From the NCBI GenBank assembly GCA_033551855.1, contig JAWSUI010000021.1, positions 1-58,155 on the forward strand: a stretch of DNA of 58,155 nt, written 5' to 3'. This document shows positions 8,356-53,443 of the stretch, one piece after another. Under the pieces are notes generated by a model that saw only the letters and a list, made by a program, of their open reading frames with translations, had not been told where the DNA came from and did no database searches. Each line of letters starts with the position of its first letter. The stretch's first letter is position 1. The DNA is from Deferrisomatales bacterium (GTDB taxonomy: Bacteria; Desulfobacterota; Deferrisomatia; Deferrisomatales; JACRMM01). The position numbers and the translations under genes were made by a program.

Positions 8356-8390
8356 AACTGGGGGGATGAAGACCGGCGAGGGGAACGTCG

Positions 8391-10431: not shown

Positions 10432-10968
10432 TTATCTGAATGCGACCCGGCGGTTCTTCTCCCACGCCGTCTCGTCATGACCCACGGCGGCCGGCCGTTC
10501 CTTGCCGTAACTGACGACGGCTAGGCGGTCGGGGGGCACCCCCTTGGCCAGCAGGTAATCCCTGGCGGCCGCGGCGCGCCGTTCCCCGAGGGCCAGATTG
10601 TACCGGTCGGACCCGCGCTCGTCGCAATGCCCCTCGATGGTTGCCGTCACCTCCTTGTTTTCCTGCAGCCACTCGGCGTGGTTCTCGAGAGTCCTCCGGG
10701 CCTTCGCGGTCAGGACGGACGAGTCGTAGTCGAAGAACACGATCTCGAGACCCCCGGCCGTTGGGGGGGCAGCGGTAACGGCCTCGCGCTTGCTGCTTTC
10801 CGCGATGATGTCCTCGATCGATACGGGTTCGGGCGCCGGCTTGCTGTCGACTTCGGTCACCGTCGGCGCGGGAGCCTCCTCCGCGACCCGGGCGGTCTTG
10901 CCGGCGCAACCCGCAAACAAGAGAAGCGAGAACAGGGCGAACGCGGTGGTGAGATGGGAACGAGTCAT
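10432..10968 (-). CDS. pal: Peptidoglycan-associated lipoprotein (Pal/OmpA C-terminal domain)
   Basis: AAGGAGG RBS, lipobox FAGC, VFFDYDSS, IEGHCDERGSDRYNLALGERRA, SYGKERP, NRRV. Confidence 0.9.
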   Translation of the reverse strand: MTRSHLTTAFALFSLLLFAGCAGKTARVAEEAPAPTVTEVDSKPAPEPVSIEDIIAESSKREAVTAAPPTAGGLEIVFFDYDSSVLTAKARRTLENHAEWLQENKEVTATIEGHCDERGSDRYNLALGERRAAAARDYLLAKGVPPDRLAVVSYGKERPAAVGHDETAWEKNRRVAFR

Positions 10969-11145
10969 GATGGCCTCCTTGGCAAGGGACATTTCCGTGG
11001 TGATGGCCTCGATCGACGGCCCGTCCGCCGATCGGGCATCGCACGGCGGGAAAGAACACTCCACACGGATCGGCCAGGTCCTCGTCGCCGATTGCCCGCA
11101 CCTGCTGTCTCCTTTGTGGCCTCCCACGCTCCCGCCCGAGGAGTC

Positions 11146-12693
11146 CTAACCCGCGGGCAGGAAATCGATCGGGTAGAGGATGGTGGTCGGGGGTACGTCG
11201 TCCTTCGGGCCGAAGTTGAACCGTTCCACCCGTGCGACCACCTTCGCCACCAACTCCGCAGAAGCCAGGTCGGTCGACTCCACCCTGCAGAACGAGATCG
11301 CGCCGTCCGGCTCGATGGTGATCCGCAAGAGCAGCTTCCCGCGAAGGGTGGGGTCCTTTCGCAACTCGGCGTTGTAGATCCGGTAGAGGGTCGCCTTGTA
11401 CCGGTCGAACACGATCTGGATCTCCTCATCGGTCCGCCCCGCCCCGGGCCCGTCGCTCAGGGGTCGTCCTTCCTCAGCTGTCAGACCCGCCAAGGCGCTC
11501 TCGACCTGGGCCAAACCGACGCCGCCGATCTGTCCGCCGGTCCCGTACCCGGTGCCGCCCTGCCCCGCGGTCGCGTACCCGTGGCCGCCTCCCTGGCCGC
11601 CGCCGCCGAGGTTGCGACTGACACCGTGATTGCTGATGCCGCCGCTGCCGCCCCCCTCGGCTTGAATGGCCACGAGGGCGCGCTGGGCTCGGGCCTGCCC
11701 CGGCATCTTCGGGTCGGTCTTCTGCAGGCGGGCCTCAGCCCCGATCTTGGCGACGGGCACTTCCTCCATCAGGTCGGAAAAGCTGCTCTTGAAGGCCAGG
11801 ACCCCGGTCTTTTCGGCCGTTTTCCTGGCGACCTTGGCTTCGCTCTCAGCCGGTTTGGCTTCGGGCGGGGGCCTTTCCGGTTCCTTCTTCGGTTCGACCG
11901 CCACCGCTTCCGGCGCTGCCGGCTTGGGCTTCTGCGGTTCGGCCTTCTTCTCTTCGGGCGCCTTCCGGGGCTCCGCCGGCTTCTCCGGCTCCGGTTCGAC
12001 TTTCTTCTCCTCGGGCGGTCTCTGCGGGGCCGGGGCCGGCTCGAGGGGTTCCTGTTTGACCAGCATCGCCAACCGCTGGGGAATGACGGGGACCGCCTGG
12101 GTCCGATCCGGCAGGGGGATGCGGACCAGGGGAATGGTGACCCCCAGGAACAGGCAGAAGAGCAACGAGATCCGCAGCGCCCGCTGAAAACGCCGGTCGC
12201 TCTCGGGGTCCTTCGACCAGGGCATGAGCGTTGGCCGAGAGGGGACGGACGAGATCTCCCGGTCGATCTGGAACTCGTCCAGGCGCCGCTCTTCCCGGGC
12301 GTACGCCTGCTGCACCTCGTAGTGGAACTCCTCGAGCTCGTCCCATTGCCGATCGATCTGGGTCCGGAGCGCCGCCCGCGTTTCCTCAAGCCCCGCGGTC
12401 TGTGCGTTGAAGTCCGCGATGCGGCCGCGCAGCCGCTCGCTGTGGACCGCTGCCGCCTCGCCGTTCGCCAGCCCATCCCAGAACAGGTCGGCGGCACCCA
12501 GGTCCTGCAGCCGGTCGAGAGCGGCACAGGCATCCTGGAGGATTTCGACCCGTTGGCGTTCCAGCGCAAAGGTTTCCAGTTCCGCCTCGACCTCCCGAAG
12601 ATCGCCTTCCAGCCGCGCGACGGCCTGCTGGCCCTCGTCGATCCGGGCGTTCAGAGGCTCCAATTCCTGTGCAAGCATCGATGTCGTTCTCAC
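11146..12693 (-). CDS. TonB/TolA-like energy transducer with AgmX/PglI-type C-terminal domain (GltG-like)
   Basis: N-terminal coiled coil, single TM helix (ISLLFCLFLGVTIPLV), Pro/Glu/Lys-rich linker, Gly-rich stretch, C-terminal RTDEEIQIVFDRYKATLYRIYNAELRKDPTLRGKLLLRITIEPDG...YPIDF. Confidence 0.8.
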   Translation of the reverse strand: MRTTSMLAQELEPLNARIDEGQQAVARLEGDLREVEAELETFALERQRVEILQDACAALDRLQDLGAADLFWDGLANGEAAAVHSERLRGRIADFNAQTAGLEETRAALRTQIDRQWDELEEFHYEVQQAYAREERRLDEFQIDREISSVPSRPTLMPWSKDPESDRRFQRALRISLLFCLFLGVTIPLVRIPLPDRTQAVPVIPQRLAMLVKQEPLEPAPAPQRPPEEKKVEPEPEKPAEPRKAPEEKKAEPQKPKPAAPEAVAVEPKKEPERPPPEAKPAESEAKVARKTAEKTGVLAFKSSFSDLMEEVPVAKIGAEARLQKTDPKMPGQARAQRALVAIQAEGGGSGGISNHGVSRNLGGGGQGGGHGYATAGQGGTGYGTGGQIGGVGLAQVESALAGLTAEEGRPLSDGPGAGRTDEEIQIVFDRYKATLYRIYNAELRKDPTLRGKLLLRITIEPDGAISFCRVESTDLASAELVAKVVARVERFNFGPKDDVPPTTILYPIDFLPAG

Positions 12694-12704
12694 GGGAGCC
12701 CCAA

Positions 12705-13199
12705 TCAGCTCTGCGAGGCCTTCTGGATCACCGCCAGGGATATCATCCCGTATCCAGAATCCGTGCAGGTTGTCATGATCTTCTTGAGCGCCCGGAAAGG
12801 GATCGACTTGTCGGCGAGGATGGTGATCTCTCGACTCTCGGCGACCGTCTTGGTGCTGATCCCGATGATGCTACGTTCCAGCTGTCCCAACCGTTCGCTG
12901 ATCGCGGGCACTCGCTCGCCCGTCGAGGCGAGCAGGTCGGGAGTCGCCAGGACGGCTTCCCCCTGCACCACCACGGTTTCGGGGCTGACCAGGATGACCA
13001 CCGTTTCCCGGGGCTTGGCTTCCACCACGGAATGGGGCAGCGCGACCTGCTTGGGCGTGGTCAGGACCTCGCTCGACGAGGCGTTGGCCAGCAGGAAGAA
13101 CACCAGAATGGTGAAGACGTCCATCAGGGAAGTGAGATTGAGGCCTGTCACCTTCTTCCGGTTCCGCTCCATCCGCCGGATCCGTCGGCTGTCTCTCAT
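12705..13199 (-). CDS. exbD: ExbD/TolR family protein (AglS-like)
   Basis: LNLTSLMDVFTILVFFLL TM helix with the conserved Asp; ITILADKSIPFRALKKIMTT. Confidence 0.88.
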   Translation of the reverse strand: MRDSRRIRRMERNRKKVTGLNLTSLMDVFTILVFFLLANASSSEVLTTPKQVALPHSVVEAKPRETVVILVSPETVVVQGEAVLATPDLLASTGERVPAISERLGQLERSIIGISTKTVAESREITILADKSIPFRALKKIMTTCTDSGYGMISLAVIQKASQS

Positions 13200-13687
13200 G
13201 GCGCATCTCCTATCGATACCAGGGGAAAGAGCGCCACCCTCTGCATCTCTTCGCCCGTCTCCCCGGTCAGTTGCGCCTCACGAACGGTGTCCATGACTCG
13301 AATCAGCACGTCGTACTCGATGTCCGGTTCCATCAGGACGGTCGCGTCGTCCTTCTGCGGGTAGTCGTTCTTGAGCCGGACGAGCATCTGGGACAGCCTG
13401 TCCAGGTCGTAGTCGCCGTCCTTCTTCGGGAGTGCCGCCACCACCTGGGTTCCATTGGCGAGCTCCAGCCCCTCTTTGCGCACCACCACCTCGATGGTGA
13501 AGGTCGGTTTGACGATCTCCGCGCCGCCGGCCGCGGTCGGCATGCTCAACTCCAGAATCGTGACCCGCGAGAAGACCGCGCCGATGAGCAGGAACGGGAC
13601 CAGGACCACCATCAGGTTGAGAAACGAGGTGATGTTGAGCTCGGGGGGCCCCTTGGTCCGCCTGCGGTAGTGATGTCGTCGTTTCAT
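13196..13687 (-). CDS. exbD: ExbD/TolR family protein (AglQ-like), Asn at the conserved TM Asp position
   Basis: ELNITSFLNLMVVLVPFLL; VLMEPDIEYDVLIRVMDTVR...LFPLVS. Confidence 0.85.
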   Translation of the reverse strand: MKRRHHYRRRTKGPPELNITSFLNLMVVLVPFLLIGAVFSRVTILELSMPTAAGGAEIVKPTFTIEVVVRKEGLELANGTQVVAALPKKDGDYDLDRLSQMLVRLKNDYPQKDDATVLMEPDIEYDVLIRVMDTVREAQLTGETGEEMQRVALFPLVSIGDAP

Positions 13688-14340
13688 GACTGGCCCGCCA
13701 GGTGGGGGCGCTTGGTGAAGTTCGAGATGCTGTTGAGCGCCTTGACCGACGCCATCTCCAGGCTGTCGACGATCTGGCCGGTGGTCGAGGTCAACTTGGC
13801 ATGGGCCAGCAGGAGCGGAATCGCCACCATCAGCCCGAACGCCGTGGTGTTCATGGCCACCGAGATGCTCGCGGAGAGCAGGTCGGCCTTCTCGGCGGGG
13901 TTGGCATTGGCGACGGCGGTAAACGCCTCGATCAGGCCCATGATCGTGCCGAGCAGCCCGAGCAGGGTCGCGATGTTCGACAACAGGCCCACATAGGGGG
14001 TGCGCTTTTCCAGCTGGGGGATGATCTCCATCATGCTCTCTTCCATGGCGATCTCGATGTCTTCCCGGCGCCGGACCGCCCCCTGTCGCGCCAGCCCCAA
14101 GGACAGCATCTGAGAGATGGTCGATGTGTCGTCGTTGACCACCTCGCGTGCCTTGTCGAAGTCGCCTTCCGACAGCAGCGGCTGGATCTGGATCCACATC
14201 TTTCGGTTCTGATTCCGGGTTCGGGCCAATTGCACCCAGCGCTCGACCGCGATGGCAACGCCGACGGCAAACACGAGCAGAATCGGGTACATGAACATGC
14301 CGCCCTTCTGAAAGAATCCCACGATGGAATAGGTTGCCAT
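13684..14340 (-). CDS. exbB: MotA/TolQ/ExbB proton channel protein (AglR-like)
   Basis: GGMFMYPI, ATLLGLLGTIMGLIEAF, ISVAMNTTAFGLMVAIP. Confidence 0.92.
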   Translation of the reverse strand: MATYSIVGFFQKGGMFMYPILLVFAVGVAIAVERWVQLARTRNQNRKMWIQIQPLLSEGDFDKAREVVNDDTSTISQMLSLGLARQGAVRRREDIEIAMEESMMEIIPQLEKRTPYVGLLSNIATLLGLLGTIMGLIEAFTAVANANPAEKADLLSASISVAMNTTAFGLMVAIPLLLAHAKLTSTTGQIVDSLEMASVKALNSISNFTKRPHLAGQS

Positions 14341-14415
14341 TTGTCTTCCTCCCGTATGATGGTTTATGGCGGAGTTTCTGATTGCGGTTGCGCGTCAAAT
14401 TCCCAGGCTACTCGG

Positions 14416-14727
14416 TTACGGCGCGTTGCTCGGCCTCTCGGTGCTGACGCGGTGGTACGTCAGCTGCCGCAGGAACACCTCGCGGTCGACCGGCGCGGCT
14501 CTCCCGCCCAACGGCATGTGCAGGCTGGTTTCGTCGCCGAGCTCGGAGCTCTTCCACGGGACGATGTAGAGGGACTTGGGAGCTTCGTCGTTTCCGACGA
14601 TCGACATACCGGACAGCTCCTTGGCCTCGCCCGGAGTCTGTCGTTGCTCCTGCCCGACATCCTGGGCCGTGGCCGTGAAGGTGCACAGAAGGGCCAGGCA
14701 CGCGCTGAGAATCACCATCCGACACAT
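14416..14727 (-). CDS. Small secreted GltF/CglF-like protein
   Basis: GAGGAG RBS, signal peptide, LSGMSIVGNDEAPKSLYIVPWK motif. Sits between the TPR genes and the motor genes. Confidence 0.65.
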   Translation of the reverse strand: MCRMVILSACLALLCTFTATAQDVGQEQRQTPGEAKELSGMSIVGNDEAPKSLYIVPWKSSELGDETSLHMPLGGRAAPVDREVFLRQLTYHRVSTERPSNAP

Positions 14728-14791
14728 ACTCCGTCTCCTCTGCTCTTCCTCTGTTGGGTTTCGCGTCCCGAGCAAACACCCGTCATCCGGC

Positions 14792-15508
14792 TCACTGCCG
14801 GAGGCGCTGGCGGAGGTCGGCAAGCCACACGATTGCCTGCTCGTCCCCCGGGTTGGCCGCGTGGTAGAGCTCATACTGACCGAGGGCGCACTCCAGGTCG
14901 TTCAGGTACAGCTCGCACAGAATGCCGAGATTTCGGTGCGCCGGGGCGTAGTCCGGGAATCGCGCCAGGACCTGCTCGTAGACCGTCCGCGCTTCCGCGA
15001 AGCGGCCGCCCCTGCGCAGGAGCAGCCCGTAGGCGTTGCCGGCCACCGGGTGCGCGGGAAACAGCTCCAGCGCCTTCTTCAGGCTCTCTTCCGCCGGCCC
15101 CGGTTGGTCGAGCTCCCGATAGGCCAGCGCGATGGCGGTGTAGGGGGCGGTGACGCCCGGTTCCTGGGCAATGACCTTCTGCAGCAGCGCGACGGCCCCG
15201 GCGTAGTCCTGCCGGTCCAGACAGTCCAGCGCCGCGGCGAAGTCGCCTTCCCACTCCTCCGGGAGGTTCGGGACCTCGCGGATGACGAACCCGGACCCGT
15301 CCGGGAGCGGCGTCACGCTGGGGCCGACCGGTTCGGCCGGGGGAGCAGGGCCGGCAACGGCCGGCTCCCCCGGAACCGTACCGAAGGTGGCGCAGCCGGG
15401 GAGCACGGTGAGCAGGGCCGCGAGGAGGGTCGATGCGACAACCACTCGGCCCCACCCGGAGGACAGGCGGCGCATCGCCGGGTTCTGGCTCATCGGGAAC
15501 ACCCTCAC
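14792..15508 (-). CDS. TPR lipoprotein (GltE-like)
   Basis: Lipobox LPGC; TPR helices; AHRNLGILCELYL...ALGQYELY...WLADL. Confidence 0.8.
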   Translation of the reverse strand: MRVFPMSQNPAMRRLSSGWGRVVVASTLLAALLTVLPGCATFGTVPGEPAVAGPAPPAEPVGPSVTPLPDGSGFVIREVPNLPEEWEGDFAAALDCLDRQDYAGAVALLQKVIAQEPGVTAPYTAIALAYRELDQPGPAEESLKKALELFPAHPVAGNAYGLLLRRGGRFAEARTVYEQVLARFPDYAPAHRNLGILCELYLNDLECALGQYELYHAANPGDEQAIVWLADLRQRLRQ

Positions 15509-18500
15509 CTCTCCGACGTCCCCGCCCCGTGGGCGGGTTCGCCGCTTACGATGGCCTGGTGATCGATCGCGACTGGGGCCATCTCCGCTGTCGCCTGATC
15601 CGAACCCTCGCCCGGCTCGCCCCGTTCGTGAGCCTCCGTCTCGGTCGCCTCCACCTCCGTTGCGCCTTCCTCTGCGCCTGCGAGAGCAGGAGGCTGCGGG
15701 CGGACGACCGCGTACGTGTAGCTCTCAAAGGAGGCGGTGACGGGGCTCTCCTGCTCCGGCTTGGCGTAGCGGGCCGGGACGAGTCCGGCCAGTCTCTGCA
15801 GGCTCCTGTCGATCCAAGCGTTGTAGATGCCGCGAGGGATCAGCTGGAGGTTGCTCTCGTGCACCTCGATCGCTCGTTCCTCGAAGGGGTAGGCCTGTTC
15901 TTCGATCGCCAACTCGTACTCTTCGAGCTCCAGGGGGCTCAGCTCCGTGGGGCGTTCGGACTCCAGCAGCGCCTGGCTGAAGTGGGCGAAGATCTCCGCG
16001 AGGTAGAAGGTCGCCGCGGCAGTGACCTCCCCGATCTCGTAGGCGAGAAGCCCCGTGAAGTCCCCCGTCGCCGCCCTCATCGCTTCTTGCTTCCGGGGCA
16101 GGGTTCGCTCGATCGGCAAGACCAGCTCGATGGCGACCAGCCGGGCGTAGCTCAGCTCGGCCAGCACCAGTGCCGCCTTGGCGGCGAGATACCGGGTCCG
16201 GGCGGTCTGCTCAGTCCCGGCGTCCGCCTCGACGGCGACGATGGTTCGGAGCTCGCGAAGGTAGCCCTCCCGGTCGTCGGCGGCCTTGAGGAGGTCGGCG
16301 ATCCGGTTGCGGGTCTCCAGGTGGGGCTGCACCGGCTGCGGGAAATGGTCGACGTACCGCTGATAGACCTGCAGCGCCCGGTCGGGCCGCTCGGCCTGCT
16401 CGTACAACTCTGCGGCGATCAACAGCGTTTCTTGCCGGATCTGCACGTCGTCGGTTTCCGCTTCGATCCGCTCATGCTCCCCCGCCGAGAGGGCGAGCTG
16501 CCCGTCCTCCCGGTACACGAAGGCGAGTCTCTTCGTCACCTGGGGCTGGAGCTCGTGCCTCGGGAAGGCGGTCCGGAAGCCCTGGAGGACCTGGGCGGCC
16601 AGCGGCCAGTCCTGGAGCTGAATCAGGGCCGCGGCGGCGTCGTACTCGGCGTTGGACCGGATCTTCGAGGTCGGTGCCGTGTGCCCGACCCGGAGAAAGT
16701 GGTTCGCAGCGGCCCGGAAGTCCTCCAGCACGACGGCCTGCTCCCCTTGCTTGTAGATCGACGCCGCCAGGTTGTCGGTGAGGGCCTCCCGGGTCTCGTC
16801 CTGCTCCGGGAGCAGGGCCAGCACCTGCAGATAGCCCTCTTCGGCCTCTGCGAAGTGCTGCAGCTCGTAGCTGGAGTGGGCGACGACCAGCCAGGCTCCG
16901 CGACGCACATCGGACTCGGCGGCCGGGAACGCGTCGATCAGCTTCCGGCCGGCGGCCAGCGCCTGCTCGAACTCCTGCAGCCCGTAGAGGTCGTCCACGG
17001 CGGCACCGAGCACGACCCCCGCCTTGTCGTGCTCCGGGAAGGTCTCGGCGAACTGCAGCGAGCTTCTCACCACCTCCCGCCGAGTCGCGGCGTCGTCGGC
17101 CGGTCCGACGGTGTCCAGATGGCGACGGTATGCGTAGACCGCCGCGTATCCCGCCGTCGAGGACCGCTCGTGGGGCGGGTAGTCGTAGGCGGTCTTCTCG
17201 TATTCCACGGCGGCCTCGCCGAAAGAGCGGTTCTCCATCAGGAGGTCGGCCAGCTGGTAGTGGATGACCGGCGACTCGCCTTCCCGCGGGAAGGAGGCGA
17301 GGAACTCCCGATACCAGTGCAGCGCCTCGCGGTAGTTCTCCGACGCCAGTTCCTGGGCCCGCGGGTCGCGGTACAGGGCATGGAAATGATGGGCCAGGTC
17401 GGTCAGGTTCGCTTTCAGATAGGCGAGAACCTCCGGCCGCTCGTTCGGCTCGAAGTGCTCCCAGTACTCGGCCTGCAGGCCGTAGTTGGTGGCGAAGGCC
17501 TTCTTGGCTTCGACGACCAGCGAGGGAAAGCCCCCGGCGATGTTGATCTCGATCACCCGCATGTGGAAGTGGGGCGCCTTCCTGTGGAACCGGTTCCGGC
17601 TGGCGAAGGCGTTGTAGGTCGCCACCGCGTCGGCATAGCGACGTTTGGTGTAGTAATACTCCCCGAGATTGCTGTAGACACTGTCCTCGTAACTTCGCCC
17701 TCCCTGCTCGGAGAAATAGGAAACCACCGAGTCGGCTCCGCCAAGATTGGAGAAGCTGAGACTGATGACCCGGAATGTGTCGTCCATTCGCTTGCGTTCC
17801 TGATCGTCCTCCGTCTGATCAAAGTCGTATCCCACCGATACCTGGTAATCGAGCAGGGCGATGAATCGGTGCAGTGCATCCTCGTACAATTCCTGCTTGT
17901 AGAAGGTCCACCCGAGCTTGTAGAGGGCCAGTCGGTACATCGAGGAGGCGACACCGAGGGACACGATGCTCTCGTAGGCCTCCTCCGCGTCCCGGTAGCG
18001 CCGGTGCGTGAAGAAGAACTCGGCCCGGCGGAACTGCACTTCGTCAAAGAAGCGGGACTGGGGAAACTCGCGCGCCAGCCGGTCCATGACCTCCATCGCC
18101 TCTTCGACACGCCCCAGTTCCTCGTAGGCGCGGGCCATCTGGTAGAGCACCTGATCGCTGCGCCGGTACGCCGGATACTCCGCGAGCAGTCTCTGGTAGA
18201 GTTCGATCGCCTCGCGGGCGCCGGCCCTGTCCAGGTCGTCGAACGCCGCCGGCTCCCTGGCCGGCAGGGCATCTCCGAGGGTCGTGCGCCGCTCGAACTC
18301 CGCGTCGGACTCGCCTTCCGCCGCCGCGGCCGCAGGCTGCGCAGTCACCAGGGACGGCGCCGGCGCAGGTTCCGGCGCCGACAGGGCCGGAGCCTGGTCG
18401 GCCAAGGGCCGGTCGCCGCTGATGAACCCGTATTCCTTCTCGATCTTCAGGTCGGCCAGCCGGCGAATCGCCTCGGGTGCCATCGGCGCATCCGGAGACT

Positions 18501-18675
18501 CCTCCAGAAAGCGCTCGTAACCAGCCATCGCCTTTTCCAGACCGCCTTCGATCCGTTCCCTCCGGATGTCGACCTCAACCCCGCGCAGACCGGCGATCGT
18601 CCTCCCGCCGCTGCCCGGCGCGCAGGCCTGGAGCAGGAGCGGGAACACCACCAGGAAGAGTCGCGACCGGTTCAT
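15505..18675 (-). CDS. Large TPR lipoprotein (GltD/AgmU-like)
   Basis: Start MNRSRLFLVVFPLLLQAC (lipobox); many TPRs (DQVLYQMARAYE, EVQFRRAEFFF, ALYKLGWTFYK); C-terminal LEEYELAIEEQAYPFEERAIEVHESN...PARYAK. Confidence 0.82.
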   Translation of the reverse strand: MNRSRLFLVVFPLLLQACAPGSGGRTIAGLRGVEVDIRRERIEGGLEKAMAGYERFLEESPDAPMAPEAIRRLADLKIEKEYGFISGDRPLADQAPALSAPEPAPAPSLVTAQPAAAAAEGESDAEFERRTTLGDALPAREPAAFDDLDRAGAREAIELYQRLLAEYPAYRRSDQVLYQMARAYEELGRVEEAMEVMDRLAREFPQSRFFDEVQFRRAEFFFTHRRYRDAEEAYESIVSLGVASSMYRLALYKLGWTFYKQELYEDALHRFIALLDYQVSVGYDFDQTEDDQERKRMDDTFRVISLSFSNLGGADSVVSYFSEQGGRSYEDSVYSNLGEYYYTKRRYADAVATYNAFASRNRFHRKAPHFHMRVIEINIAGGFPSLVVEAKKAFATNYGLQAEYWEHFEPNERPEVLAYLKANLTDLAHHFHALYRDPRAQELASENYREALHWYREFLASFPREGESPVIHYQLADLLMENRSFGEAAVEYEKTAYDYPPHERSSTAGYAAVYAYRRHLDTVGPADDAATRREVVRSSLQFAETFPEHDKAGVVLGAAVDDLYGLQEFEQALAAGRKLIDAFPAAESDVRRGAWLVVAHSSYELQHFAEAEEGYLQVLALLPEQDETREALTDNLAASIYKQGEQAVVLEDFRAAANHFLRVGHTAPTSKIRSNAEYDAAAALIQLQDWPLAAQVLQGFRTAFPRHELQPQVTKRLAFVYREDGQLALSAGEHERIEAETDDVQIRQETLLIAAELYEQAERPDRALQVYQRYVDHFPQPVQPHLETRNRIADLLKAADDREGYLRELRTIVAVEADAGTEQTARTRYLAAKAALVLAELSYARLVAIELVLPIERTLPRKQEAMRAATGDFTGLLAYEIGEVTAAATFYLAEIFAHFSQALLESERPTELSPLELEEYELAIEEQAYPFEERAIEVHESNLQLIPRGIYNAWIDRSLQRLAGLVPARYAKPEQESPVTASFESYTYAVVRPQPPALAGAEEGATEVEATETEAHERGEPGEGSDQATAEMAPVAIDHQAIVSGEPAHGAGTSER

Positions 18676-20561: not shown

Positions 20562-20564
20562 GAA

Positions 20565-21128
20565 CTACCTGTCTTCAAACGTGATCGCCTGCCGGTCCAG
20601 GGTGACTTTGACGATCTTCGGCCCGACGCCCTTCTCCACCTGGTGGCTGTCGGTCCGTCGGAACTCGTCCCCCCCCTTCGACTTGCCGTGGAAACTCACC
20701 TGCAGCTGATGGGAGCCGGTGCGGACGTTGCCGGTGAAGAGACGCTGCACGCCGCCCATGCGCAGCGCTTCCTGCTCCCGATAGGTGTAGAGGTGGTGGG
20801 CGACCTCGCTCCCCCCCAACCGGAGATCGACCGAGTCCAGGCGGAACGAATCTCCGCCGGCCAGGGCGACGAAGACCGTGATCTGGGTCTCCGAGGGGTA
20901 GAGGAGCTTCTCCTCGAGCAGGTTCAGCTCCGACGCAATGGCGAGGACGTCACCCTTGATCTCCTGGATCTGCTCGTCGAGCCCCTTGAGCTGCTCCTTG
21001 GAGGTCTGCTCCCCTTGGGACGCCGTGCCTACCGCCAGCAGGATCCCGACTCCAAGAACCATCGCCTTCCAGAGTGTCGTCATCGTGGCCCCTCGTTGTC
21101 TGGCATCTCGTCCCGTCGGCATCGTCAC
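20565..21128 (-). CDS. Secreted hypothetical protein (coiled coil plus beta-sandwich) of the Glt-like cluster
   Basis: Signal peptide (second ATG possible); LDEQIQEIKGDVLAIASELNLLEEKLLYP; HHLYTYREQEALRMGGVQRLFTGNVRTGSH. Confidence 0.75.
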   Translation of the reverse strand: MTMPTGRDARQRGATMTTLWKAMVLGVGILLAVGTASQGEQTSKEQLKGLDEQIQEIKGDVLAIASELNLLEEKLLYPSETQITVFVALAGGDSFRLDSVDLRLGGSEVAHHLYTYREQEALRMGGVQRLFTGNVRTGSHQLQVSFHGKSKGGDEFRRTDSHQVEKGVGPKIVKVTLDRQAITFEDR

Positions 21129-26227: not shown

Positions 26228-26293
26228 CCGTGGCTACCTGTTTGTCCTACTTGGCTCCGCCAGGGTGTCGGATTGCGCTTTCGGCGGCCCGGT

Positions 26294-29200: not shown

Positions 29201-32200
29201 GTTGGCCAGGGTGTCGCTTGCGTCCGCGCGCAGGTTCCCCGGCGTGGGGTCCTCCGGCGCGTGGATCGGCATGCCGTTCTGCAGCGGCGACACTCCGGGG
29301 CCTGCATCCGCCACCGGTGCGCCGTTCAGGGTCGTGCTGCCTGCCACGTAGGTGGTGTTCGCCGGCACCTGGTCGCGCAGCGACACGCCGACGGCGTCTT
29401 CGGTGCCGATGTTCTTCACCGTGATCGTGTAGCGCAGCGCCTCGCCGGCCATGAGCACGCTCGGGTCGCCGTCGAGGTACTGCGAAGTCTTCAGGACCCG
29501 CAGCTGCGGCGCCGAGCTGATCAGGGTGGACGTCTCGTTGCTGAGGGCGAGAAGCAGATTGTCCGCCGTGAGCCGCGCCCGGTTCGGCACGCTCGTGCCA
29601 CTTCGAATCACGGGAGCGAGGGTGGCCTCGAACTCGATGGTCAAACTGTCGTTGGCCTCCCCTGCGGCACCCAGGGTCAGATTGCGGATGTCGACCATTC
29701 CGGTGCCGTGGACACCCCCCGCGACGTTGCTGAAGCTGTTGCCGGCGGCGCTGAGCACCTGAAGGGTCCCGGGGGCGAACTGCGCCGCCAGCTCGTCGAC
29801 CACCGAGATGTCGTTCACCGAAACGATGCTCTCGTTGACGAGAACGAGGGTGAACCGAAGGGTGTCGCCGGGCGCGGCGTTCGCGCCCGGGTCCTGTTCT
29901 GTGGTCGCATTGACGACGGACTTCGCGAGGGAGACGGCGAGCGGAGTCGTCAGCGTCAGCTCGGCGGGCTCGGTGAAGTAATCGTTGACCGCAGGGGTGC
30001 CGCTGCCGTTTCGCTCGAAGTCGTTGACCCCGTCCAGGCCGGTCCAGCGACCCACGACGCTGTTGGTCAAGGTCTGGCCGGGGGCGACCGAATCGAGCAC
30101 GCGCGCCTGGTAGGTGAGGGTGGCGGTGGTGCCCTCGGCGATGTCGATGTCGATGCCGATGCCGTTCGCCGGCTCCCAGACCAGGGTCTGTGCGGCGCCG
30201 ATGCCGTCGGCGCCGTTGGTTTCGGGATCGGCCAGCGCCGCGCCGTTCAGGGTCGCGCTCCCCGGCACATAGAGCAGACCCAGACCCAGGGTGTTCTCGA
30301 CGGTGAGGTCGAAGGCGCTCGAGAAGCTGTCCCCAGCGCCGCCCCCGGCGGCGGTGAAGCTCACGGTGTAGGTCAGGACCTCCCCCGCCCGGGGCGACGT
30401 CGTCGACGCCGACGTGGAAACGGTCACCAGCGGCTCGACGATGGCAAGCAGGCCGCTGCTGGACGCCGTGACGGCGCCGTCGGGGATGCCCGAATAGGTG
30501 TAGGACGCGGTGTTGGCGAAGCTCGTCCCGGCATTGGCCTGTTCATTGTTGGCCACCCGCGTCCGCAGCGTGATGGTCGCCTGCTGACCCGCCGGGATGG
30601 TGCCGAGGGTCCAGCCCAGGGTTTGGCCGGACTGGGTGGGAGTAACCGCCAGCGGTGCGCCGTTCAGCGTTGCGGCGGAACCGACGTACTCCAGCGCGCC
30701 GTGCAGCGTGTCGGTGACCACCACGCCGTCCATCGAGGCATTGACTGGGGCTGCGGGCACCAGGATCTGGTAGTCCACCTCTTCCCCGATGGTCGCTTCC
30801 GCCGGGGTTCCGGGGGCGGGCGCTGCGGGGGAGACCAGGGTCTTGGCCAGTGGCTGGTGTCTCACCACGTTGGTCATCCAGACCTGGGCCGGGCCGACGG
30901 GGGCGTAGAGGCGGCCGTCGGTCGGCAGCGACCAGTACTCGTGCAGCCGGGCCTGGTTGCTCCAGATGGTCTGACTGTCGAGGTCGGTGCGGAAGCCGAG
31001 CTCGTAGTCGACGGTGACGCATTGGCCCGGGTCGACGGGAACGTCGTCCAGAAGCGCGATGCGCATCTCGCCGCCGCGCCCGGGCGCGGCGTAGGTGTAA
31101 TCGCTGCCGGCAGCCAGGGGGGTCGTGCCGACTCTGACCACCGGCGGCGCCGCCAGGTAGCTTTCGTCGAACTCCGGCGCCAGCAGGTCGGTCATCACGA
31201 CGCCATAGGCGGGCCCCAGGCCGTCGTTGCAGGAGGACAGCCGGAAGCTCATCACGTCGGTCGCAATGTTGACCTGGTAGGGGTCGGCGGCCGTGCCGGT
31301 GCCGAGACGGCCGCTGCCCAGGTCGACCTTGCTGATCGTCTGCATCCGCGGCTGGCGAACGTCGATCCGCTCGGTGGCGGTCAGGCGAACGGGATGGACT
31401 GCCGGATCACCCCCCGCGTAGGCGAGCTTCGCTACATTGTCGAGCAGCGTCGAGGCCTCGTAGCCGATGCCCGCCGGCGGCGCCTCGGTGAGGACCCTGG
31501 CGACGTAGCGGACCGCCAGAGGGTCGATCGGCGTCCCGTCGTTGCTCGGCTGATTGAAGATGTCGCCGAACTCCCAGCGCAAGGTGCCCGTCGCGCCCGC
31601 AGCGGGTTGGGCCGCCAACGTGTAGCTGAAGCCGGGGGCGGCATCGATGCTGAAGCTGTCCAGCACCATCCCTGCCGGCAGCGCGTCCTCGACCACGACG
31701 CTGCGGGTGGTGTTCTCCTGCAGGCTCAGCGTCAGCTGATAGGTGACGGTGTCGCCGACGCGGACGACCGGGTCCGTGGTGCTGGCCGGTGACTCGGCAT
31801 AGGAGTCCGTGAGCACCGCTTTGGAGATCGAGGTGTTGTCGACCGTGTCGACGGTGGCAACCACGGGGCCGTAGCAGTACGTGTCGGGCGCGGTAATGGT
31901 CGGGCACCCCTCGCCGGTGCGCTCGACCATGCTCGCGCCCTGGAGCGAGGTCCAATCCGCATAGACGCTGTTGGAGATGTAGGGGCCCGTGACCGAGTCC
32001 ACCGTCACCTGATAGGTGAGCACCAGCGACTGGCCCGCGGGGATGTCGAGGCTGCCGTCTCCGTTCTCTTGGCCCCAGGCCAGGGCACCACCGGGAAGCG
32101 TGGTGGGATTCGCCTCGAAACCGCCGACCTCGACGCCGTTGATCCTGGCGGTGGCGGAACCGGCGACCAGTGTCACGTTCGCCGGCAGCCTGTCGGTCAC

Positions 32201-34669
32201 CGTCACGTCGAAGGCGGTGGATCCGCCGCTGTTGGGAAGGGTGACGACATATTCGAGGACGTCACCGAACGTGGCGGGGTCGGTTGCCGCTTTGCCCGCC
32301 GGGGTGACAAACCGCGCCGTCTTGGTGGCGGCGGCGACGGCCGGCTCGACCACCGTCATGGGGGCGGCGCTGCCTTCCCCGCCGAACATCCGGGTGTTGT
32401 CGTCGCCGTTCGCCCGGTTGTATGTGTAGGATGCGGTGTTGGTGAAGAGGAGGCCGCTCCTGTTGGTGGACGTGTTCAGCAACTCGACGGTGATCTCGAT
32501 GACCACCTGGCCGTTGGGGGGGATGTCGATGCCGGTGACGAGGTCTTCGAGCACCAGTTGGGTGTCGCTGCCGCTGGTATTGGTCGGCGTCCAGGGGCCG
32601 CCCGAGACCACGCCGGCACTCACGAAGCGTAGGTCGGCGGCGGAGCGGCTCAGGTCGTCGAGGATCCGCACGTCGTACAGGGGTTGGGCGATCGGGGTTG
32701 CGGGCACGGCAATGCGGTAGGCGAACTGCTCTCCGATCGTGGCACTCGGCTGGGTGGTGGCCTTCGCCAGCGGGCCGGGAGTCTGGATCAGCACCCTGGT
32801 CGGGTCGGCGGGTTCCCCTGGTGGGGCGATGCCGTTGACGTAGGGGTCGTCGCTGAGGGCGCTGATGGCGTCGGCGGCGGACAGGCTCGCCTGGTTGAGG
32901 ACGACGGTGCCGTTGGTGAGAGTCGACCTCAGGGTGATTTCGAACTCGAAGACGAGCTCCTCGCCGGCGGCGACGCCCAGCGGGGCCGTGTCGCCGCGAA
33001 TCTGCAGCAGGCCCGTTCCCGGCTCGAAACTGTAGGCAGCGCCCGCGGGGAGCGTCCCCATGGCGAAGGTGTCCGGCAGGAAGCTGTTCAGGTCGAGCGG
33101 GTCGTCGATGGCGATGTCGTTGATCGTTTGGTCCACGTTGAAGAGGCGCAGCCGGTAGCGCAGCCGGTCCCCCGGAGCGGCGGTAAAGGCCGGGTTCGCA
33201 TGGCTCGTCAGGTTCTCGACGGTTTTCTGGAAGTAGTAGCCGGAGAGCGCCGTCGTAATGGTGTAGCTGTCCTGGTGGTCGAGGATCGACGGCGTGCCGT
33301 CGCTGAGCGTTTTGCTGTAAGTGCGGAGGCCGGTATGGCTGCCGTCGCCGCTCCACCACTCGGTGGCGCCCGCAACGTTGGTGAGCTCGATGCCGTCGGC
33401 GGTGGTGCCGGCATCGAGTTGGCTCTGGTAGGTGATGATCAGGTGCTGTTCGGGTGCGATCGGGCCGGCGGCCCCGGTCATGGTCAGACGGAGCTGGCAC
33501 GCGGGCGGGCCGGCATAGCCGAGGGTGTAATCGGTCCCCGCGCTCAACTGCCGGACCAGGGTGCCGTCGGCCGCGACGATCCGCGCGCTGACCCCCGGCT
33601 CGGCGGGGGGGTTGATGGTGCGGGGGTCGTAGTCGCACATCCCGGCGTCGCCTCCGCCGGGGAGCAGGTCGAGGATCGTGACGTTCCAGGCGTCACTGCC
33701 GCCGGTGTTCTGGACATCGACGGTGAAGGGGGCCATGACCCCGATGTTGAGGGCCGTCTCACTGCTCGTCTTGGTGACGACGAGGTTGGGCTCGGCGATG
33801 GTCATCGGCTCCGAGACCCCCCACTCGCCCGGGAGGGGTTGATAGAAGATGTCGTCGATGAGCCGCCCGAACTCCCACTTGGCGGTGTTGACGAACTGCG
33901 TCCCCGCCGTGTTCGCGGGGGTGTCCCGGAGGACGACCGTGATCTCGATGATGATCTGCCCCCCGGCCGGGACCACCAAGTCGCCGGGAAACTCGAAGGT
34001 GAGCAGGCCGCCATCGTTCGAGAAGGTGTGCGCCAAGGGCGTGCCGGCGCCCTGCCAATAGGCAACGTGGCCCACGTAGGCGAGGTCGGCGCCCGTGGCG
34101 TTGAGGTCGTCCCAGACCGTGATGCCGTGCAGGGTGTTGGGCGACCCGCTGCTGTTCATGATGACGCCCAGCGCCGGGTCGTAGAGGACGGGGATCGTGA
34201 GCTTGTAGGTAAACGGCACCCCGATGGTCGCGGTAGGCTGGCCGGGAGGGTCTTGCTTGTCGATCTTCTCGACCGGTATCAGGAGGTTCTGGCACCCCTC
34301 CTGGATCTTGGTCGAAGACCCGTTGGTGAACCAGATCCGGTGGCCGGCGACGGCGTTGCACGCCATGTTGCCGGTGTGCACGACGTTGTCGAAGACCACC
34401 AGCCATCTCTCGTCGGTGCCGCCCGGCTGGGTGTAGAAGCTGAAGTTCGTGCTGAGGATGTTGGGGGACGGGAAGTTCCGGATCGTGCAGTTGGTATCGA
34501 TCTGGATCTGGGAGGGTGCGGAGACGAAGTTGCCGTCAATCACCCCGAAGTATGGAGCGTCGGAGCAGTTGACCGCCAACGCCGGAGCGGCCGCCCCCAG
34601 CAACAGGGCGAGAGGGCCAAAGGCGGCACGGATCAGTTTGGTCCAGAGTTGCGGAACGAATCCCTGCAT
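26294..34669 (-). CDS. Giant secreted adhesin (~2790 aa) with DUF11/isopeptide-pilin-type repeats, SdrD-B-like domains and a degenerate OmpA-like C-terminus
   Basis: Signal peptide ending APALA; repeated K-T...G-(D/E)-x-L-x-Y...N...D-x-L-P...N-x-A units; GRVWHDGNLD and GKVFDDRNRNGRQDDGEPG. Start placed at ATG 34669 (GGTGA RBS) because the longer ORF runs into the riboswitch terminator. Confidence 0.88.
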   Translation of the reverse strand: MQGFVPQLWTKLIRAAFGPLALLLGAAAPALAVNCSDAPYFGVIDGNFVSAPSQIQIDTNCTIRNFPSPNILSTNFSFYTQPGGTDERWLVVFDNVVHTGNMACNAVAGHRIWFTNGSSTKIQEGCQNLLIPVEKIDKQDPPGQPTATIGVPFTYKLTIPVLYDPALGVIMNSSGSPNTLHGITVWDDLNATGADLAYVGHVAYWQGAGTPLAHTFSNDGGLLTFEFPGDLVVPAGGQIIIEITVVLRDTPANTAGTQFVNTAKWEFGRLIDDIFYQPLPGEWGVSEPMTIAEPNLVVTKTSSETALNIGVMAPFTVDVQNTGGSDAWNVTILDLLPGGGDAGMCDYDPRTINPPAEPGVSARIVAADGTLVRQLSAGTDYTLGYAGPPACQLRLTMTGAAGPIAPEQHLIITYQSQLDAGTTADGIELTNVAGATEWWSGDGSHTGLRTYSKTLSDGTPSILDHQDSYTITTALSGYYFQKTVENLTSHANPAFTAAPGDRLRYRLRLFNVDQTINDIAIDDPLDLNSFLPDTFAMGTLPAGAAYSFEPGTGLLQIRGDTAPLGVAAGEELVFEFEITLRSTLTNGTVVLNQASLSAADAISALSDDPYVNGIAPPGEPADPTRVLIQTPGPLAKATTQPSATIGEQFAYRIAVPATPIAQPLYDVRILDDLSRSAADLRFVSAGVVSGGPWTPTNTSGSDTQLVLEDLVTGIDIPPNGQVVIEITVELLNTSTNRSGLLFTNTASYTYNRANGDDNTRMFGGEGSAAPMTVVEPAVAAATKTARFVTPAGKAATDPATFGDVLEYVVTLPNSGGSTAFDVTVTDRLPANVTLVAGSATARINGVEVGGFEANPTTLPGGALAWGQENGDGSLDIPAGQSLVLTYQVTVDSVTGPYISNSVYADWTSLQGASMVERTGEGCPTITAPDTYCYGPVVATVDTVDNTSISKAVLTDSYAESPASTTDPVVRVGDTVTYQLTLSLQENTTRSVVVEDALPAGMVLDSFSIDAAPGFSYTLAAQPAAGATGTLRWEFGDIFNQPSNDGTPIDPLAVRYVARVLTEAPPAGIGYEASTLLDNVAKLAYAGGDPAVHPVRLTATERIDVRQPRMQTISKVDLGSGRLGTGTAADPYQVNIATDVMSFRLSSCNDGLGPAYGVVMTDLLAPEFDESYLAAPPVVRVGTTPLAAGSDYTYAAPGRGGEMRIALLDDVPVDPGQCVTVDYELGFRTDLDSQTIWSNQARLHEYWSLPTDGRLYAPVGPAQVWMTNVVRHQPLAKTLVSPAAPAPGTPAEATIGEEVDYQILVPAAPVNASMDGVVVTDTLHGALEYVGSAATLNGAPLAVTPTQSGQTLGWTLGTIPAGQQATITLRTRVANNEQANAGTSFANTASYTYSGIPDGAVTASSSGLLAIVEPLVTVSTSASTTSPRAGEVLTYTVSFTAAGGGAGDSFSSAFDLTVENTLGLGLLYVPGSATLNGAALADPETNGADGIGAAQTLVWEPANGIGIDIDIAEGTTATLTYQARVLDSVAPGQTLTNSVVGRWTGLDGVNDFERNGSGTPAVNDYFTEPAELTLTTPLAVSLAKSVVNATTEQDPGANAAPGDTLRFTLVLVNESIVSVNDISVVDELAAQFAPGTLQVLSAAGNSFSNVAGGVHGTGMVDIRNLTLGAAGEANDSLTIEFEATLAPVIRSGTSVPNRARLTADNLLLALSNETSTLISSAPQLRVLKTSQYLDGDPSVLMAGEALRYTITVKNIGTEDAVGVSLRDQVPANTTYVAGSTTLNGAPVADAGPGVSPLQNGMPIHAPEDPTPGNLRADASDTLANVATVTFDVVVSPHLADGAIISNQGFVSGSGEGSGVFSERPSDDPDTDLVDDPTRDVVGNLPLVYATKTVQIVAEAPGGTVGVVDPGDVLRYTITLTNSAATPAAGVTLTDAVPPHTTYVPDSLFLNGLPVGQPDGGISPLVAGIPVSSRDLTPPLPGADAGTLSPNGGTATVTFDVQVNAGTESGTVIRNQATVGTSQLPPLPTDADGIPGNGYQPTEVVVGDAQMLVITKEVSVVGGGPAQAGGQLEYVLRVTNISTVPATRVVIADDLGHLGPDPYVAGSATVDGLFGSVAYDAPILSVAYGDLPPGGTTVVRFRVRIDPALPFGTTITNTGVVTWNDPAQSASASVSVEVGGTPGSGTVGGRVWHDGNLDKVRDGDERALEGWSVELHRGSRVLATVFTDAEGLWRIGGLLSNDAAGEPYDVRFRAAGAGPNTAHLGYADSPFTNGSQRILGVTVPSGSNLQNLNLPITPNGTVYDSVRRTPVRGARLALVSAASGAPLPSSCFDDPAQQNQVTPADGFYKFDLNFSEPSCPPGGDFLIAVTPPANGYDTYPSRVIPPASDATTSSFSVPACPGTTADAVPATTEYCEATTSALPPPLSVGPRTAGTTYYLNLTLSNGSIPGQSQIFNNPVPIDPVLDGAASITKTAAKLNVSRGDLVPYTITVRNLFGAPLTDLSIVDRFPAGFKYVESSARLDGTPSEPVINGQTLTWDGFTLETNQTRTLQLLLVVGAGVAEAEYVNRAQVLNGITGGRVTEEATATVRVVPDPTFDCTDVIGKVFDDRNRNGRQDDGEPGLSGVRVVTARGLIANTDPYGRFHIACAAVPDRERGSNFILKVDDRTLPSGYRLTTENPRVQRATRGKMLRFQFGATIHRVVTLDVADAAYEPGTTDLRLQWQGKLDQLLGVLEESPSVLRLSYLADVESERLVRRRLHALKKEISGRWERVGRGDRLDIETEVFWRRGSPP

Positions 34670-34686
34670 CGGCATCACCAGTCGTG

Positions 34687-34725
34687 AAATAGAAAAGCGC
34701 CCATCTTTCTGCCGAAGATGAGCGC
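34687..34725 (-). terminator. Intrinsic terminator of the riboswitch expression platform
   Basis: Minus strand GCGCTCATCTT-CGGCAGA-AAGATGGGCGC-TTTTCTATTT. Its 5' arm can alternatively pair with GAAGAGATGAGC just after the aptamer. Confidence 0.75.
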
Positions 34726-34771
34726 TCCTGGGATACATGCCTCTGCCGGGGCCGCAGGATGCAGAGCTCAT

Positions 34772-34852
34772 CTCTTCGGCAACCCGGCTATCCTGTGCTC
34801 AGGACCCGTGGCTTTGCGTCACCAGATTACTCTGGTTTTGCCCTTTCGGAGA
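34772..34852 (-). ncRNA. Cyclic-di-GMP-I (GEMM) riboswitch aptamer, gene-proximal copy
   Basis: Minus strand CCGAAAGGGCAAAACCAGAGTAATCTGGTGACGCAAAGCCACGGGTCCTGAGCACAGGATAGCCGGGTTGCCGAA has the GGCAAA-P2(GNRA loop GTAA)-GACGCAAAGCC-P3-AGCCGGGTTGCCG pattern. Confidence 0.9.
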
Positions 34853-34988
34853 TCTTGCTTGTTTTCTCAGATATCGGCTTCCGTCTCCCCTTTCCGTCCT
34901 TGTAACGAAACGATCGTCCCATCTCCCGCAGAAGATGAGCGCCCCTGGGATACGCACCTCTGACGAGGTCACAGGGTGCGGCACTCAT

Positions 34989-35069
34989 CTCTTCGGCAAC
35001 CCGGCTATCGTGTGCCCAGGACCCGTGGCCTTGCGTCACCAGATTACTCTGGTCTTTCCCTTTCGGAGA
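34989..35069 (-). ncRNA. Cyclic-di-GMP-I (GEMM) riboswitch aptamer, promoter-proximal divergent copy
   Basis: Near-duplicate of 34772-34852 with substitutions (GGGAAAGACC, GCAAGGCC, CACACGATAGCC), followed by a similar platform with a weaker hairpin (~34915-34941). Confidence 0.75.
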
Positions 35070-37338: not shown

Positions 37339-37359
37339 GAACGGCGGAGCGCCTGCGTC

Positions 37360-53379: not shown

Positions 53380-53395
53380 ACCCCACGCAACGAAG

Positions 53396-53429: not shown

Positions 53430-53443
53430 AGACGCGACCCGGC

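Follow-up and report, generated by a model that had tools for sequence, protein, structure and literature searches.

The gene set gltC, gltD, gltE, gltG, aglR, aglQ and aglS was defined as a core (Group B) by Luciano et al. (2011; PMC3169522), in whose account it is clustered in Geobacter and Gammaproteobacteria with a function stated as unknown. SprA of type IX secretion systems (T9SS), with 36 strands, is described as the largest solved barrel (10.64898/2026.03.07.710327; PMC7463736) and admits folded cargo (PMC7463736), while three 38-stranded barrels have been predicted in D. radiodurans (PMC9388160). The DUF11 domain, in turn, has been described as the CLIPPER domain, which forms an intramolecular isopeptide bond (10.1101/2025.04.25.650565). 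Here, we analysed a 58,155-nt stretch (the window; contig JAWSUI010000021.1, C21 in our numbering, of assembly GCA_033551855.1) of a Deferrisomatales bacterium whose genome measures 4.24 Mb and is 100% complete by markers. It carries a cluster of 12 genes, all on the minus strand (34669 to 10432), in which the genes of a giant fibrillar adhesin and of a 1700-aa outer-membrane barrel protein precede an Agl-Glt core and stand behind cyclic di-GMP (c-di-GMP) riboswitches. In the reading that we favour, and to which we give about an even chance, the barrel would display and anchor an isopeptide-locked fibre, and the motor of the core would tension, gate, unhook or reposition that fibre.

The adhesin and the barrel protein, with the parts on which the argument turns, are:

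26294..34669, minus strand: giant fibrillar adhesin, 2791 aa (Pfam/NCBIfam)
26294..26575, minus strand: alpha/beta domain of about 93 aa, conserved at the C-terminus of the adhesin and modelled as beta-alpha-beta-alpha-beta
21125..26227, minus strand: 1700-aa outer-membrane protein (Pfam, AlphaFold)
22841..23257, minus strand: SprA/Sov-shared module of the latter, aa 991-1129, consisting of the inserted beta-sandwich and the next two barrel strands (HHalign)

An earlier note on this DNA had described an isopeptide-repeat adhesin of ~2790 aa, and the protein does match DUF11, SdrD_B and RrgB-type isopeptide models (Pfam/NCBIfam). It comprises a Sec-type signal, a variable Cys-containing tip, a DUF11/CLIPPER stalk, SdrD_B domains and a conserved neck. 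Pfam recognizes seven DUF11 stretches and TIGR01451 eight, and the Lys/Asp/Asn (K/D/N) triad is found in 8 of the 10 motif-detected repeats; judged by its sequence, the protein thus has the tandem DUF11 repeats with triad that characterize CLIPPER adhesins, the bond itself being predicted. A model of the last 640 aa, with a predicted local distance difference test score (pLDDT) of 88, displays pilin, SdrD and CLIPPER-like folds, and 9ifr, the crystal structure for the Acinetobacter silvestris CLIPPER adhesin B9T28_05395, aligns with the DUF11 domain of the neck (Z 12.9, root-mean-square deviation 2.7, 117 aligned). Tips of four types occur among 31 long copies, the lengths of which range from ~2800 to 5000 aa. 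The C-terminal domain is possibly a degenerate OmpA-like periplasmic retention domain; one homologue (L198) terminates in a Pal-type domain.

The barrel protein consists of three OmpA-like domains (two recognized by Pfam, the third by alignment), two beta-sandwich domains and a barrel at aa 807-1700, predicted to be closed, which agrees with the triple-OmpA/beta-barrel protein of the earlier note. Both peptidoglycan-binding residues are kept solely in the first OmpA domain, where the family retains D in 55/56 and R in 56/56 sequences. For residues 530-1700 the AlphaFold model (pLDDT 82.7, predicted template-modelling score 0.77) yields 40 membrane strands, of which 7 precede and 33 follow an inserted beta-sandwich, a count drawn from a DSSP list and not from coordinates, for which 38-40 is the honest range. 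Long and short loops alternate, and the first and last strands align with porin ends, as in a closed barrel. The barrel of Desulfuromonas soudanensis shares 69% identity with that of the window. The family pools 2199 clusters at 50% identity (E up to 1e-10), for which neither Pfam nor NCBIfam offers a model; in ESM Atlas the barrel matches unnamed clusters only, and Foldseek and VIA, which barely covered the periplasmic parts, returned generic barrels only.

Among the 150 best barrel representatives, 29 have the C-terminal region of the adhesin fused to them in one chain. In some of these fusions the stalk precedes the OmpA domains, so that, with the topology that we infer, an external stalk would have to cross the barrel. 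We are highly confident that adhesin and barrel act together, and we hold it to be probable that the barrel is the export and anchoring route for the adhesin. The barrel might instead be a wall-tethered scaffold or large pore, while the repeat protein remains in the periplasm or takes some other way to the surface. Its OmpA domains, its weak top Foldseek match to SlpA (TM-score 0.16-0.19) and the fact that translocation through it is only inferred would fit such a role, yet the obligate adjacency, the fusions, a tip that varies where the neck is conserved, as is usual in fibrillar adhesins, and a genome with neither SprA nor a T9SS type-A C-terminal domain (CTD) render it very improbable. Distant barrel relatives (~30% identity; L091-L095, L097) are fused to DUF11/SdrD_B/OmpA domains, and no core match was found within the flanking sequence covered; in L091-L093 they come after small pilin-like DUF11 genes, possibly forming a pilus-like branch of the superfamily.

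The kinship of the barrel with SprA was detected by profile comparison. Aligned with 13 SprA N-terminal halves, which were drawn from two phyla and picked around a motif resembling SprA, the barrel profile scored 95.4% in HHalign (E 1.7e-8, 114 columns), as opposed to at most 2.1% in 29 controls (6 cluster alignments, 20 column shuffles and 3 small outer-membrane families). The SprA/Sov family model (TIGR04189) has no match in the genome and is matched by 1 of 21 barrel-family sequences (E 0.039), and neither the barrel profile nor the inserted domain by itself gave a significant match when searched by sequence against solved structures. Two Zixibacteria proteins of ~1100-1270 aa that are not SprA, L247 (G044:C1:2985563-2985721) and L248 (G476:C138:9095-9253), match the same stretch of the SprA model (positions 601-653) and are further carriers of the shared module. 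A motif at the N-terminus common to the barrel and to TIGR04565 barrels was considered and found unsupported (E 0.69).

Downstream of the barrel gene, the remaining part of the cluster reads, in order of transcription:

20565..21083, minus strand: secreted 172-aa protein, first gene of the core (no Pfam match; 5609 relatives)
18672..20561, minus strand: GltC-like periplasmic tetratricopeptide repeat (TPR) protein, 629 aa, candidate connector to the barrel (TPR; length and place as Gura_3077)
15505..18675, minus strand: GltD-like TPR lipoprotein, 1056 aa (TPR; lipobox LQAC; position as Gura_3076)
14792..15493, minus strand: GltE-like TPR lipoprotein, 233 aa (NF033758, E 0.0013; lipobox LPGC)
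14416..14727, minus strand: small secreted protein of 103 aa, its gene keeping its place between gltE and exbB (position only)
13684..14340, minus strand: AglR/ExbB/TolQ-type proton channel subunit (PF01618, E 4e-25; channel motif conserved)
13196..13687, minus strand: AglQ-position ExbD, exbD1 (PF02472; Asn replaces the channel Asp, as aligned to E. coli ExbD)
12705..13199, minus strand: AglS-position ExbD, exbD2 (PF02472; channel Asp kept)
11146..12693, minus strand: GltG-like transducer (NF033768 over cut-off, NF033760, Pfam)
10432..10968, minus strand: Pal lipoprotein, co-oriented (TIGR02802 over cut-off)

The order gltC-gltD-gltE-(small gene)-aglR-aglQ-aglS-gltG is that of the Group B clusters Gura_3077-3070 and GM21_0438-0445, and the lengths of the seven named products (629/1056/233/218/163/164/515 aa) resemble those of G. 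uraniireducens (629/1108/240/211/166/166/484), which bears out the assignment of the motor half to the Agl-Glt core. Identification by profile succeeded well for the GltG homologue, which scores 50.7 bits with NF033768 (cut-off 40) and E 2.9e-11 with NF033760 (below the whole-protein cut-off) and has the membrane helix and TonB-like C-terminal domain of its Group B counterparts. It was weak for GltE and GltC, the GltC model NF033756 matching 2 of 49 relatives (best 3.8e-6) and not the window protein itself, and it failed for the GltD-like protein, which has no match to a GltD-specific profile. The two lipoboxes among the TPR proteins had been recognized correctly. The GltG-like protein consists of a ~155-aa cytoplasmic coiled coil, one membrane helix, a Pro-rich linker and a TonB/TolA-type C-terminal domain, with no FHA match in Pfam.

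Two of the earlier assignments had to be given up. The 103-aa protein, read as GltF-like, has no family match in Pfam or NCBIfam, and the name is a positional label; gltF was classed as restricted to Myxococcales and Bdellovibrionales (Luciano et al., 2011; PMC3169522). Pal, counted as part of the cluster, was rejected as a conserved member: pal follows gltG in 3 of 18 related loci with at least 500 nt of downstream sequence. The 172-aa gene is also present in cores without an adhesin, and its product matches unnamed clusters only in ESM Atlas. At the AglQ position, 101 relatives have Asn in 86, Asp in 14 and a gap in 1, several of the 14 Asp-retaining loci carrying Nitrospirota or Geobacterales titles; at the AglS position, 93 of 95 relatives have Asp and 2 a gap. 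Given Asn in the first ExbD and Asp in the second, the motor is probably asymmetric, in linked and unlinked cores alike.

As the earlier note had it, the 12 genes are co-oriented and follow the order adhesin, barrel, secreted protein, TPR proteins, motor and pal. Its many overlapping stop and start codons were found in part: overlap is firm at 3 of 11 junctions (gltC/D, exbB/exbD1 and exbD1/exbD2) and at none of the other 8, of which 3 have 3-11 nt spacing, 4 have 38-75 nt, and the one ahead of pal ~160-180 nt. An internal promoter or terminator would split the cluster, as was then pointed out; consensus scans, which are weak in GC-rich DNA, gave no promoter-like site on the minus strand and terminator-like sites in no excess over shuffles (6 vs 6.2 and 6 vs 5.8). 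GC content at third codon positions is 0.82-0.89 for 11 of the 12 open reading frames, exbD1 falling outside the measure. A recent island was ruled out, as the GC content of the cluster (0.65-0.70) resembles that of the left flank.

We then compared related loci. Close loci were defined through the 172-aa core gene, as the 80 best-scoring among 561 genome loci; their titles comprise Desulfobacterota, Nitrospirota, Gemmatimonadota, Zixibacteria and Proteobacteria, some perhaps misbinned. Where sequence covered the position, the barrel stands directly upstream of the core in 79/79, the adhesin is present in 55/56, and all parts in 44/45. A less biased survey comprised 401 genomes of the gammaproteobacterial class of a Chromatiales genome, of which 76 have the core gene; the barrel was detected in at least 49 of 400, a floor given that two candidates were scored per genome. 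Among the 30 non-centre genomes with a close barrel (>600 bits), 7 have it within 30 kb of the core, in the flipped order core-adhesin-barrel. The linkage of the pair to the motor persists in different phyla and after rearrangement, which supports the earlier proposal on this point.

The link also leaves traces in the proteins themselves. Linked barrels possess the full triple-OmpA region, with profile scores of 484-831 (n=7) vs at most 460 in unlinked ones (n=13). The cytoplasmic N-terminus of GltG has at least 137 aa in 45 of 48 linked proteins (89 aa in the other 3) and at most 36 aa in 9/9 unlinked ones. In a GltD tree of 91 sequences, to which one close locus in three contributed, marked as linked by default, the adhesin-linked cores constitute one clade with support of 0.99, made up of 28 labelled tips and one core whose barrel lies on another contig. 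Since linked cores form a single clade, the sequences indicate that the adhesin-core link arose once, spread between phyla and survived rearrangement.

A candidate contact between the two halves emerged from complex modelling. GltC-like residues 24-430 with barrel residues 41-600 scored 0.39 vs 0.00 for the best of three controls, with contact agreement of at least 73% and partner pLDDT of at least 68. In calibration, 116 of 157 solved pairs attained this mark, as did 2 of 215 mismatched ones; at or below 0.60, however, it was attained by just 18 of the solved pairs and by both mismatched ones. There was prior reason for the guess, GltC having been modelled in Myxococcus as linking to GltA/B (PMC11761067). 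The modelling lends weak support to a GltC-barrel contact, and that the core touches the barrel seems likely to us. The correlation of barrel and GltC distances (r 0.88) was not used as evidence, as kin share distances.

Upstream of the adhesin gene, the tandem riboswitches announced earlier were recovered as two aptamers of the c-di-GMP-I clan above the Rfam gathering score, together with an expression platform:

34992..35069, minus strand: c-di-GMP-I aptamer, promoter-distal copy (Rfam RF01051, 53.4 bits, above gathering score; folding)
34774..34851, minus strand: c-di-GMP-I aptamer, proximal copy (Rfam clan CL00126, 68.5 bits, above gathering score)
34691..34773, minus strand: expression platform with anti-aptamer helix, alternative antiterminator and intrinsic terminator (ViennaRNA folds of the window and related copies)

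The proximal copy has G20/A47/C92 by motif and is of the c-di-GMP type, not the A20 cyclic GMP-AMP (cGAMP) type, A20 (G20A) being the mark of cGAMP-type aptamers (PMC6140456). The promoter-distal copy keeps G20/A47/C92 with one P2 pair broken, and both it and its downstream platform are degenerate. Sensing of cGAMP was considered because Geobacter GEMM-I switches include cGAMP types, and was rejected: of the 35 aptamers read, 28 are G/A/C by motif and 7 miss one motif, with no A20 among those listed. The intrinsic terminator ends 22 nt before the adhesin ATG. As the anti-aptamer helix and a strong terminator recur among related copies in ViennaRNA folds, the platform is likely an ON switch, terminating without ligand and reading through with c-di-GMP; an OFF switch was considered as the less likely direction. 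Of 31 loci (30 genomes), 17 have an aptamer no more than 640 nt from the adhesin start, 16 of these found with a profile trained on Rfam-found copies and the 17th by an Rfam rescan of 14 of the 15 negatives, so the earlier claim of c-di-GMP control applies to no more than a part of the clade. In L209, L202, L203, L206 and L218 a single adhesin gene is preceded by three or four c-di-GMP-I riboswitches in tandem, and in G474 the cluster occurs in two copies with riboswitches at each.

In the mechanism that we propose, the adhesin would be exported by Sec and fold in the periplasm into isopeptide-locked Ig-like domains, and the folded protein would go tip-first through its own very wide SprA-related barrel; isopeptide-locked CLIPPER domains fit the need for a wide pore. 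The conserved C-terminal neck would remain inside and, with peptidoglycan bound by the first OmpA domain of the barrel, the fibre would be anchored to the cell wall. The ExbB/ExbD/ExbD channel would drive the GltG-like transducer, force being relayed by the GltD/E/C-like TPR scaffold, and the GltC-like protein would dock on the barrel at its triple-OmpA region, the barrel thereby standing where GltA/B do in Myxococcus. The motor may then be an accessory, not strictly needed for export, by which the anchored fibre is tensioned, gated, unhooked or moved to a new position, and high c-di-GMP would probably turn the block on. The fuller statement, a secretion and anchoring system in which a dedicated ~40-strand barrel akin to SprA/Sov threads the folded fibre and holds its C-terminus while a Glt-type one-Asp motor pulls the barrel, we put forward more tentatively, as somewhat short of an even chance.

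A number of observations weigh against this reading as a whole. The homology with SprA is local, covering 114 of ~900 columns, and whole-fold similarity to SprA in Foldseek is low (TM-score 0.13-0.16), a measure by which barrels differing in strand number superpose badly; the strand count has the range given above. The C-terminal domain of the adhesin gave no significant match to the OmpA profile (E 0.05-0.25), and one of the two ExbD subunits has no channel Asp. The complex score of 0.39 falls in a range in which most predictions are wrong unless the contact was probable to begin with. The antiterminator can form without ligand in partial transcripts (ViennaRNA), for which reason the ON direction is called likely and no more. 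The close loci were selected by score and around a core gene, and with a single origin the linkage counts are not independent.

To the same side belong two results of the gammaproteobacterial survey. In 9 of 19 tested genomes with a close barrel there was no GltD match, the test having covered 19 of the 23 unlinked ones, and an adjacent adhesin of up to ~4000 aa was present in 7/7 examined of those 9; 14 of the 30 close-barrel genomes have the core gene or GltD elsewhere. Pairs without a GltD match suggest that the motor is probably not needed for export itself, and because pairs exist without a detectable core, a motor acting on the anchored fibre is favoured over obligate powered export. Such export, in the manner of the T9SS, would have the core pull or gate the adhesin through the barrel. 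It could draw on the SprA-shared module and the size of the barrel, on the tight linkage with clade-specific barrel and GltG domains, and on the weak GltC-barrel prediction, and the GltD-less genomes may be incomplete or use another TonB motor; given these genomes and the distant relatives with small DUF11 genes and no core match in the sequence covered, we regard it as unlikely, if still the most serious competitor.

The second result concerns cores without the pair. We examined 80 of 94 non-centre core regions, the 14 omitted being mostly near contig ends or partial. A small-barrel module, with TIGR04565, SH3-barrel or DUF3570 genes, adjoins 38 of the 80, often also with HZS-alpha/LamG lipoproteins, TlpA and ApbE; TIGR04565 is a model that we take to be linked to the GltA/B/H barrels. 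The remainder comprises 7 adhesin-linked regions, 7 with the LamG group or ApbE only and 28 with none of these. The core-less pairs and the small-barrel cores caution against regarding the adhesin as cargo of such cores in general. The suggestion in the earlier note of a motor driven by proton motive force that translocates, tensions or moves the adhesin is thus supported in part; a motor serving as export engine, or such work as the task of the core in general, is not supported.

From the same counts it could be argued that the core has an envelope job of its own and merely shares an operon with a physically separate pair: the pair is absent from 73 of the 80 regions, 28 of which have no recurring partner gene at all, the linkage has a single origin, and the closest core and barrel of G149 are found on separate contigs. 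We consider this improbable in view of a linkage kept through a flip of gene order and transfer between phyla, of mutual exclusion with the small-barrel module (found in 0/7 adhesin-linked gammaproteobacterial regions), of the co-occurring triple-OmpA and GltG features, and of the fact that no GltA/B-type barrel in the genome scores over the cut-off.

Several side observations concern these regions. The commoner second partner module upstream of gammaproteobacterial cores (L108-L163, e.g., L137:1-20000 and L149:1-20000) comprises genes for an HZS-alpha/PD40 lipoprotein, an SH3-barrel protein, a TIGR04565 barrel, a TlpA thioredoxin, DUF3570, a LamG protein, two unnamed proteins and ApbE. G252 (L103/L141), G304 (L104/L170), G335 (L101/L147) and G414 (L102/L124/L176) have 2-3 core-gene matches, one of them adhesin-linked; G335 and G414 also have one of the small-barrel type. 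Of 14 regions scanned, 4 (L213:3961-4123, L221:13244-13397, L228:14481-14635 and L226:11434-11791) have tRNA or tmRNA genes upstream of the adhesin, and these may mark sites at which a mobile block integrated. In metagenome-assembled genomes, related clusters of L027, L028, L048, L065 and L199 are broken into short frames by assembly error or decay. As for the flanks in the window, genes for an Mre11/SbcD-like phosphoesterase, a Rad50/SMC-like ATPase and an ABC-class ATPase (PF09818) on the plus strand (4439-10330) converge on the cluster end. Two TRAP transporter sets and LUD/CCG lactate-utilisation genes occupy 35561-41299 and 51596-54703 on the minus strand, and the right flank additionally contains DUF1848, DUF72, pyridine nucleotide-disulphide oxidoreductase and CheR genes.

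The Agl-Glt core, the CLIPPER adhesin type and the c-di-GMP riboswitch are already known. What appears to be new is the barrel family, with its SprA link, its pairing with the adhesin and, in one clade, its coupling to the core; we found an account of none of these in the literature searched, a body from which subscription papers were mostly absent. One clade of an orphan core, the function of which has been open since 2011, can thereby be tied to a partner in the outer membrane, to a cargo and a regulator, and to a contact predicted by modelling. If the proposal is true, a T9SS translocon and a myxobacterial gliding transducer would be joined in one machine, and the core would be a general force transducer with swappable outer-membrane heads; small-barrel cores would be the same transducer with another head, which bears on the evolution of gliding. 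Should the model hold, the barrel would exceed the largest solved single-chain barrel and offer an export route for CLIPPER-stalk adhesins in bacteria without T9SS.

In a comparison with the known systems, the Group B core shares gene order with the cluster, and the adhesin, the large barrel and the riboswitch beside it are not named in the text available of the Group B account (PMC3169522). With Myxococcus Agl-Glt, the locus has in common an ExbB/ExbD/ExbD-type motor with a heterodimeric plug, a TonB-like GltG, a TPR scaffold and a GltC linking to outer-membrane barrels and adhesin (PMC11761067). It differs from Myxococcus in one giant peptidoglycan-binding barrel instead of GltA/B/H/K, a 2800-aa stalked adhesin instead of CglB, and a coiled coil on GltG instead of FHA, and no GltJ was found in the genome (NF033761, best 32.7 bits vs cut-off 450). 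The earlier statement that small GltA/B/H-type barrels are missing can be extended genome-wide at the TIGR04565 cut-off, as the single match reaches 48.2 bits vs 60; it lies on another contig, in a frame of 351 aa that adjoins an OmpA-type domain. These differences bear on gliding-like surface motility, in which the motor would carry barrel and adhesin along the cell as a focal adhesion. A core homologous to Agl-Glt with an adhesin at its outer end invites this idea, which we nevertheless judge quite improbable, since the barrel retains a canonical peptidoglycan-binding domain, GltG has no FHA match, no GltJ exceeds the cut-off, and the core alone does not drive motility, as Luciano et al. argue (PMC3169522).

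With SprA/Sov of the T9SS, the barrel shares very large single-chain size and a homologous module of 114 columns, and the two systems have in common a proton motor and a cargo with a conserved C-terminal region (PMC7463736). Unlike SprA, the barrel falls below the SprA family cut-off, has half the length, carries OmpA domains, and is apparently dedicated to one neighbouring cargo, to which it is often fused; the motor is of the ExbB/ExbD type. The type-A CTD cargo signal (TIGR04183) was not found in the genome, nor was any family match to GldLM/GldKN, PorV or PorU among the cluster proteins, to which that search was confined. The analogy with the T9SS drawn in the earlier note gains a basis in sequence from the shared module. 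In Tol-Pal and Ton, a pentamer-dimer motor pulls via a TolA/TonB-type transducer. The present system resembles them in its motor and transducer, outer-membrane target and OmpA-type wall anchors (PMC12204202), and departs from them in that pal is not conserved and a large TPR scaffold is present; no TolB or TonB-dependent receptor match was found among the cluster proteins. The adhesin itself is like the CLIPPER adhesin B9T28_05395 of Acinetobacter silvestris in having a tip, a predicted isopeptide-locked stalk and, possibly, an OmpA-like C-terminal anchor (10.1101/2025.04.25.650565); the text available of that report, in which the words 'outer membrane', 'secretion' and 'barrel' do not occur, names no export route. 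By its composition the system belongs neither to the gliding machinery nor to the T9SS, and it resembles an Agl-Glt transducer joined to a T9SS-like wide pore.

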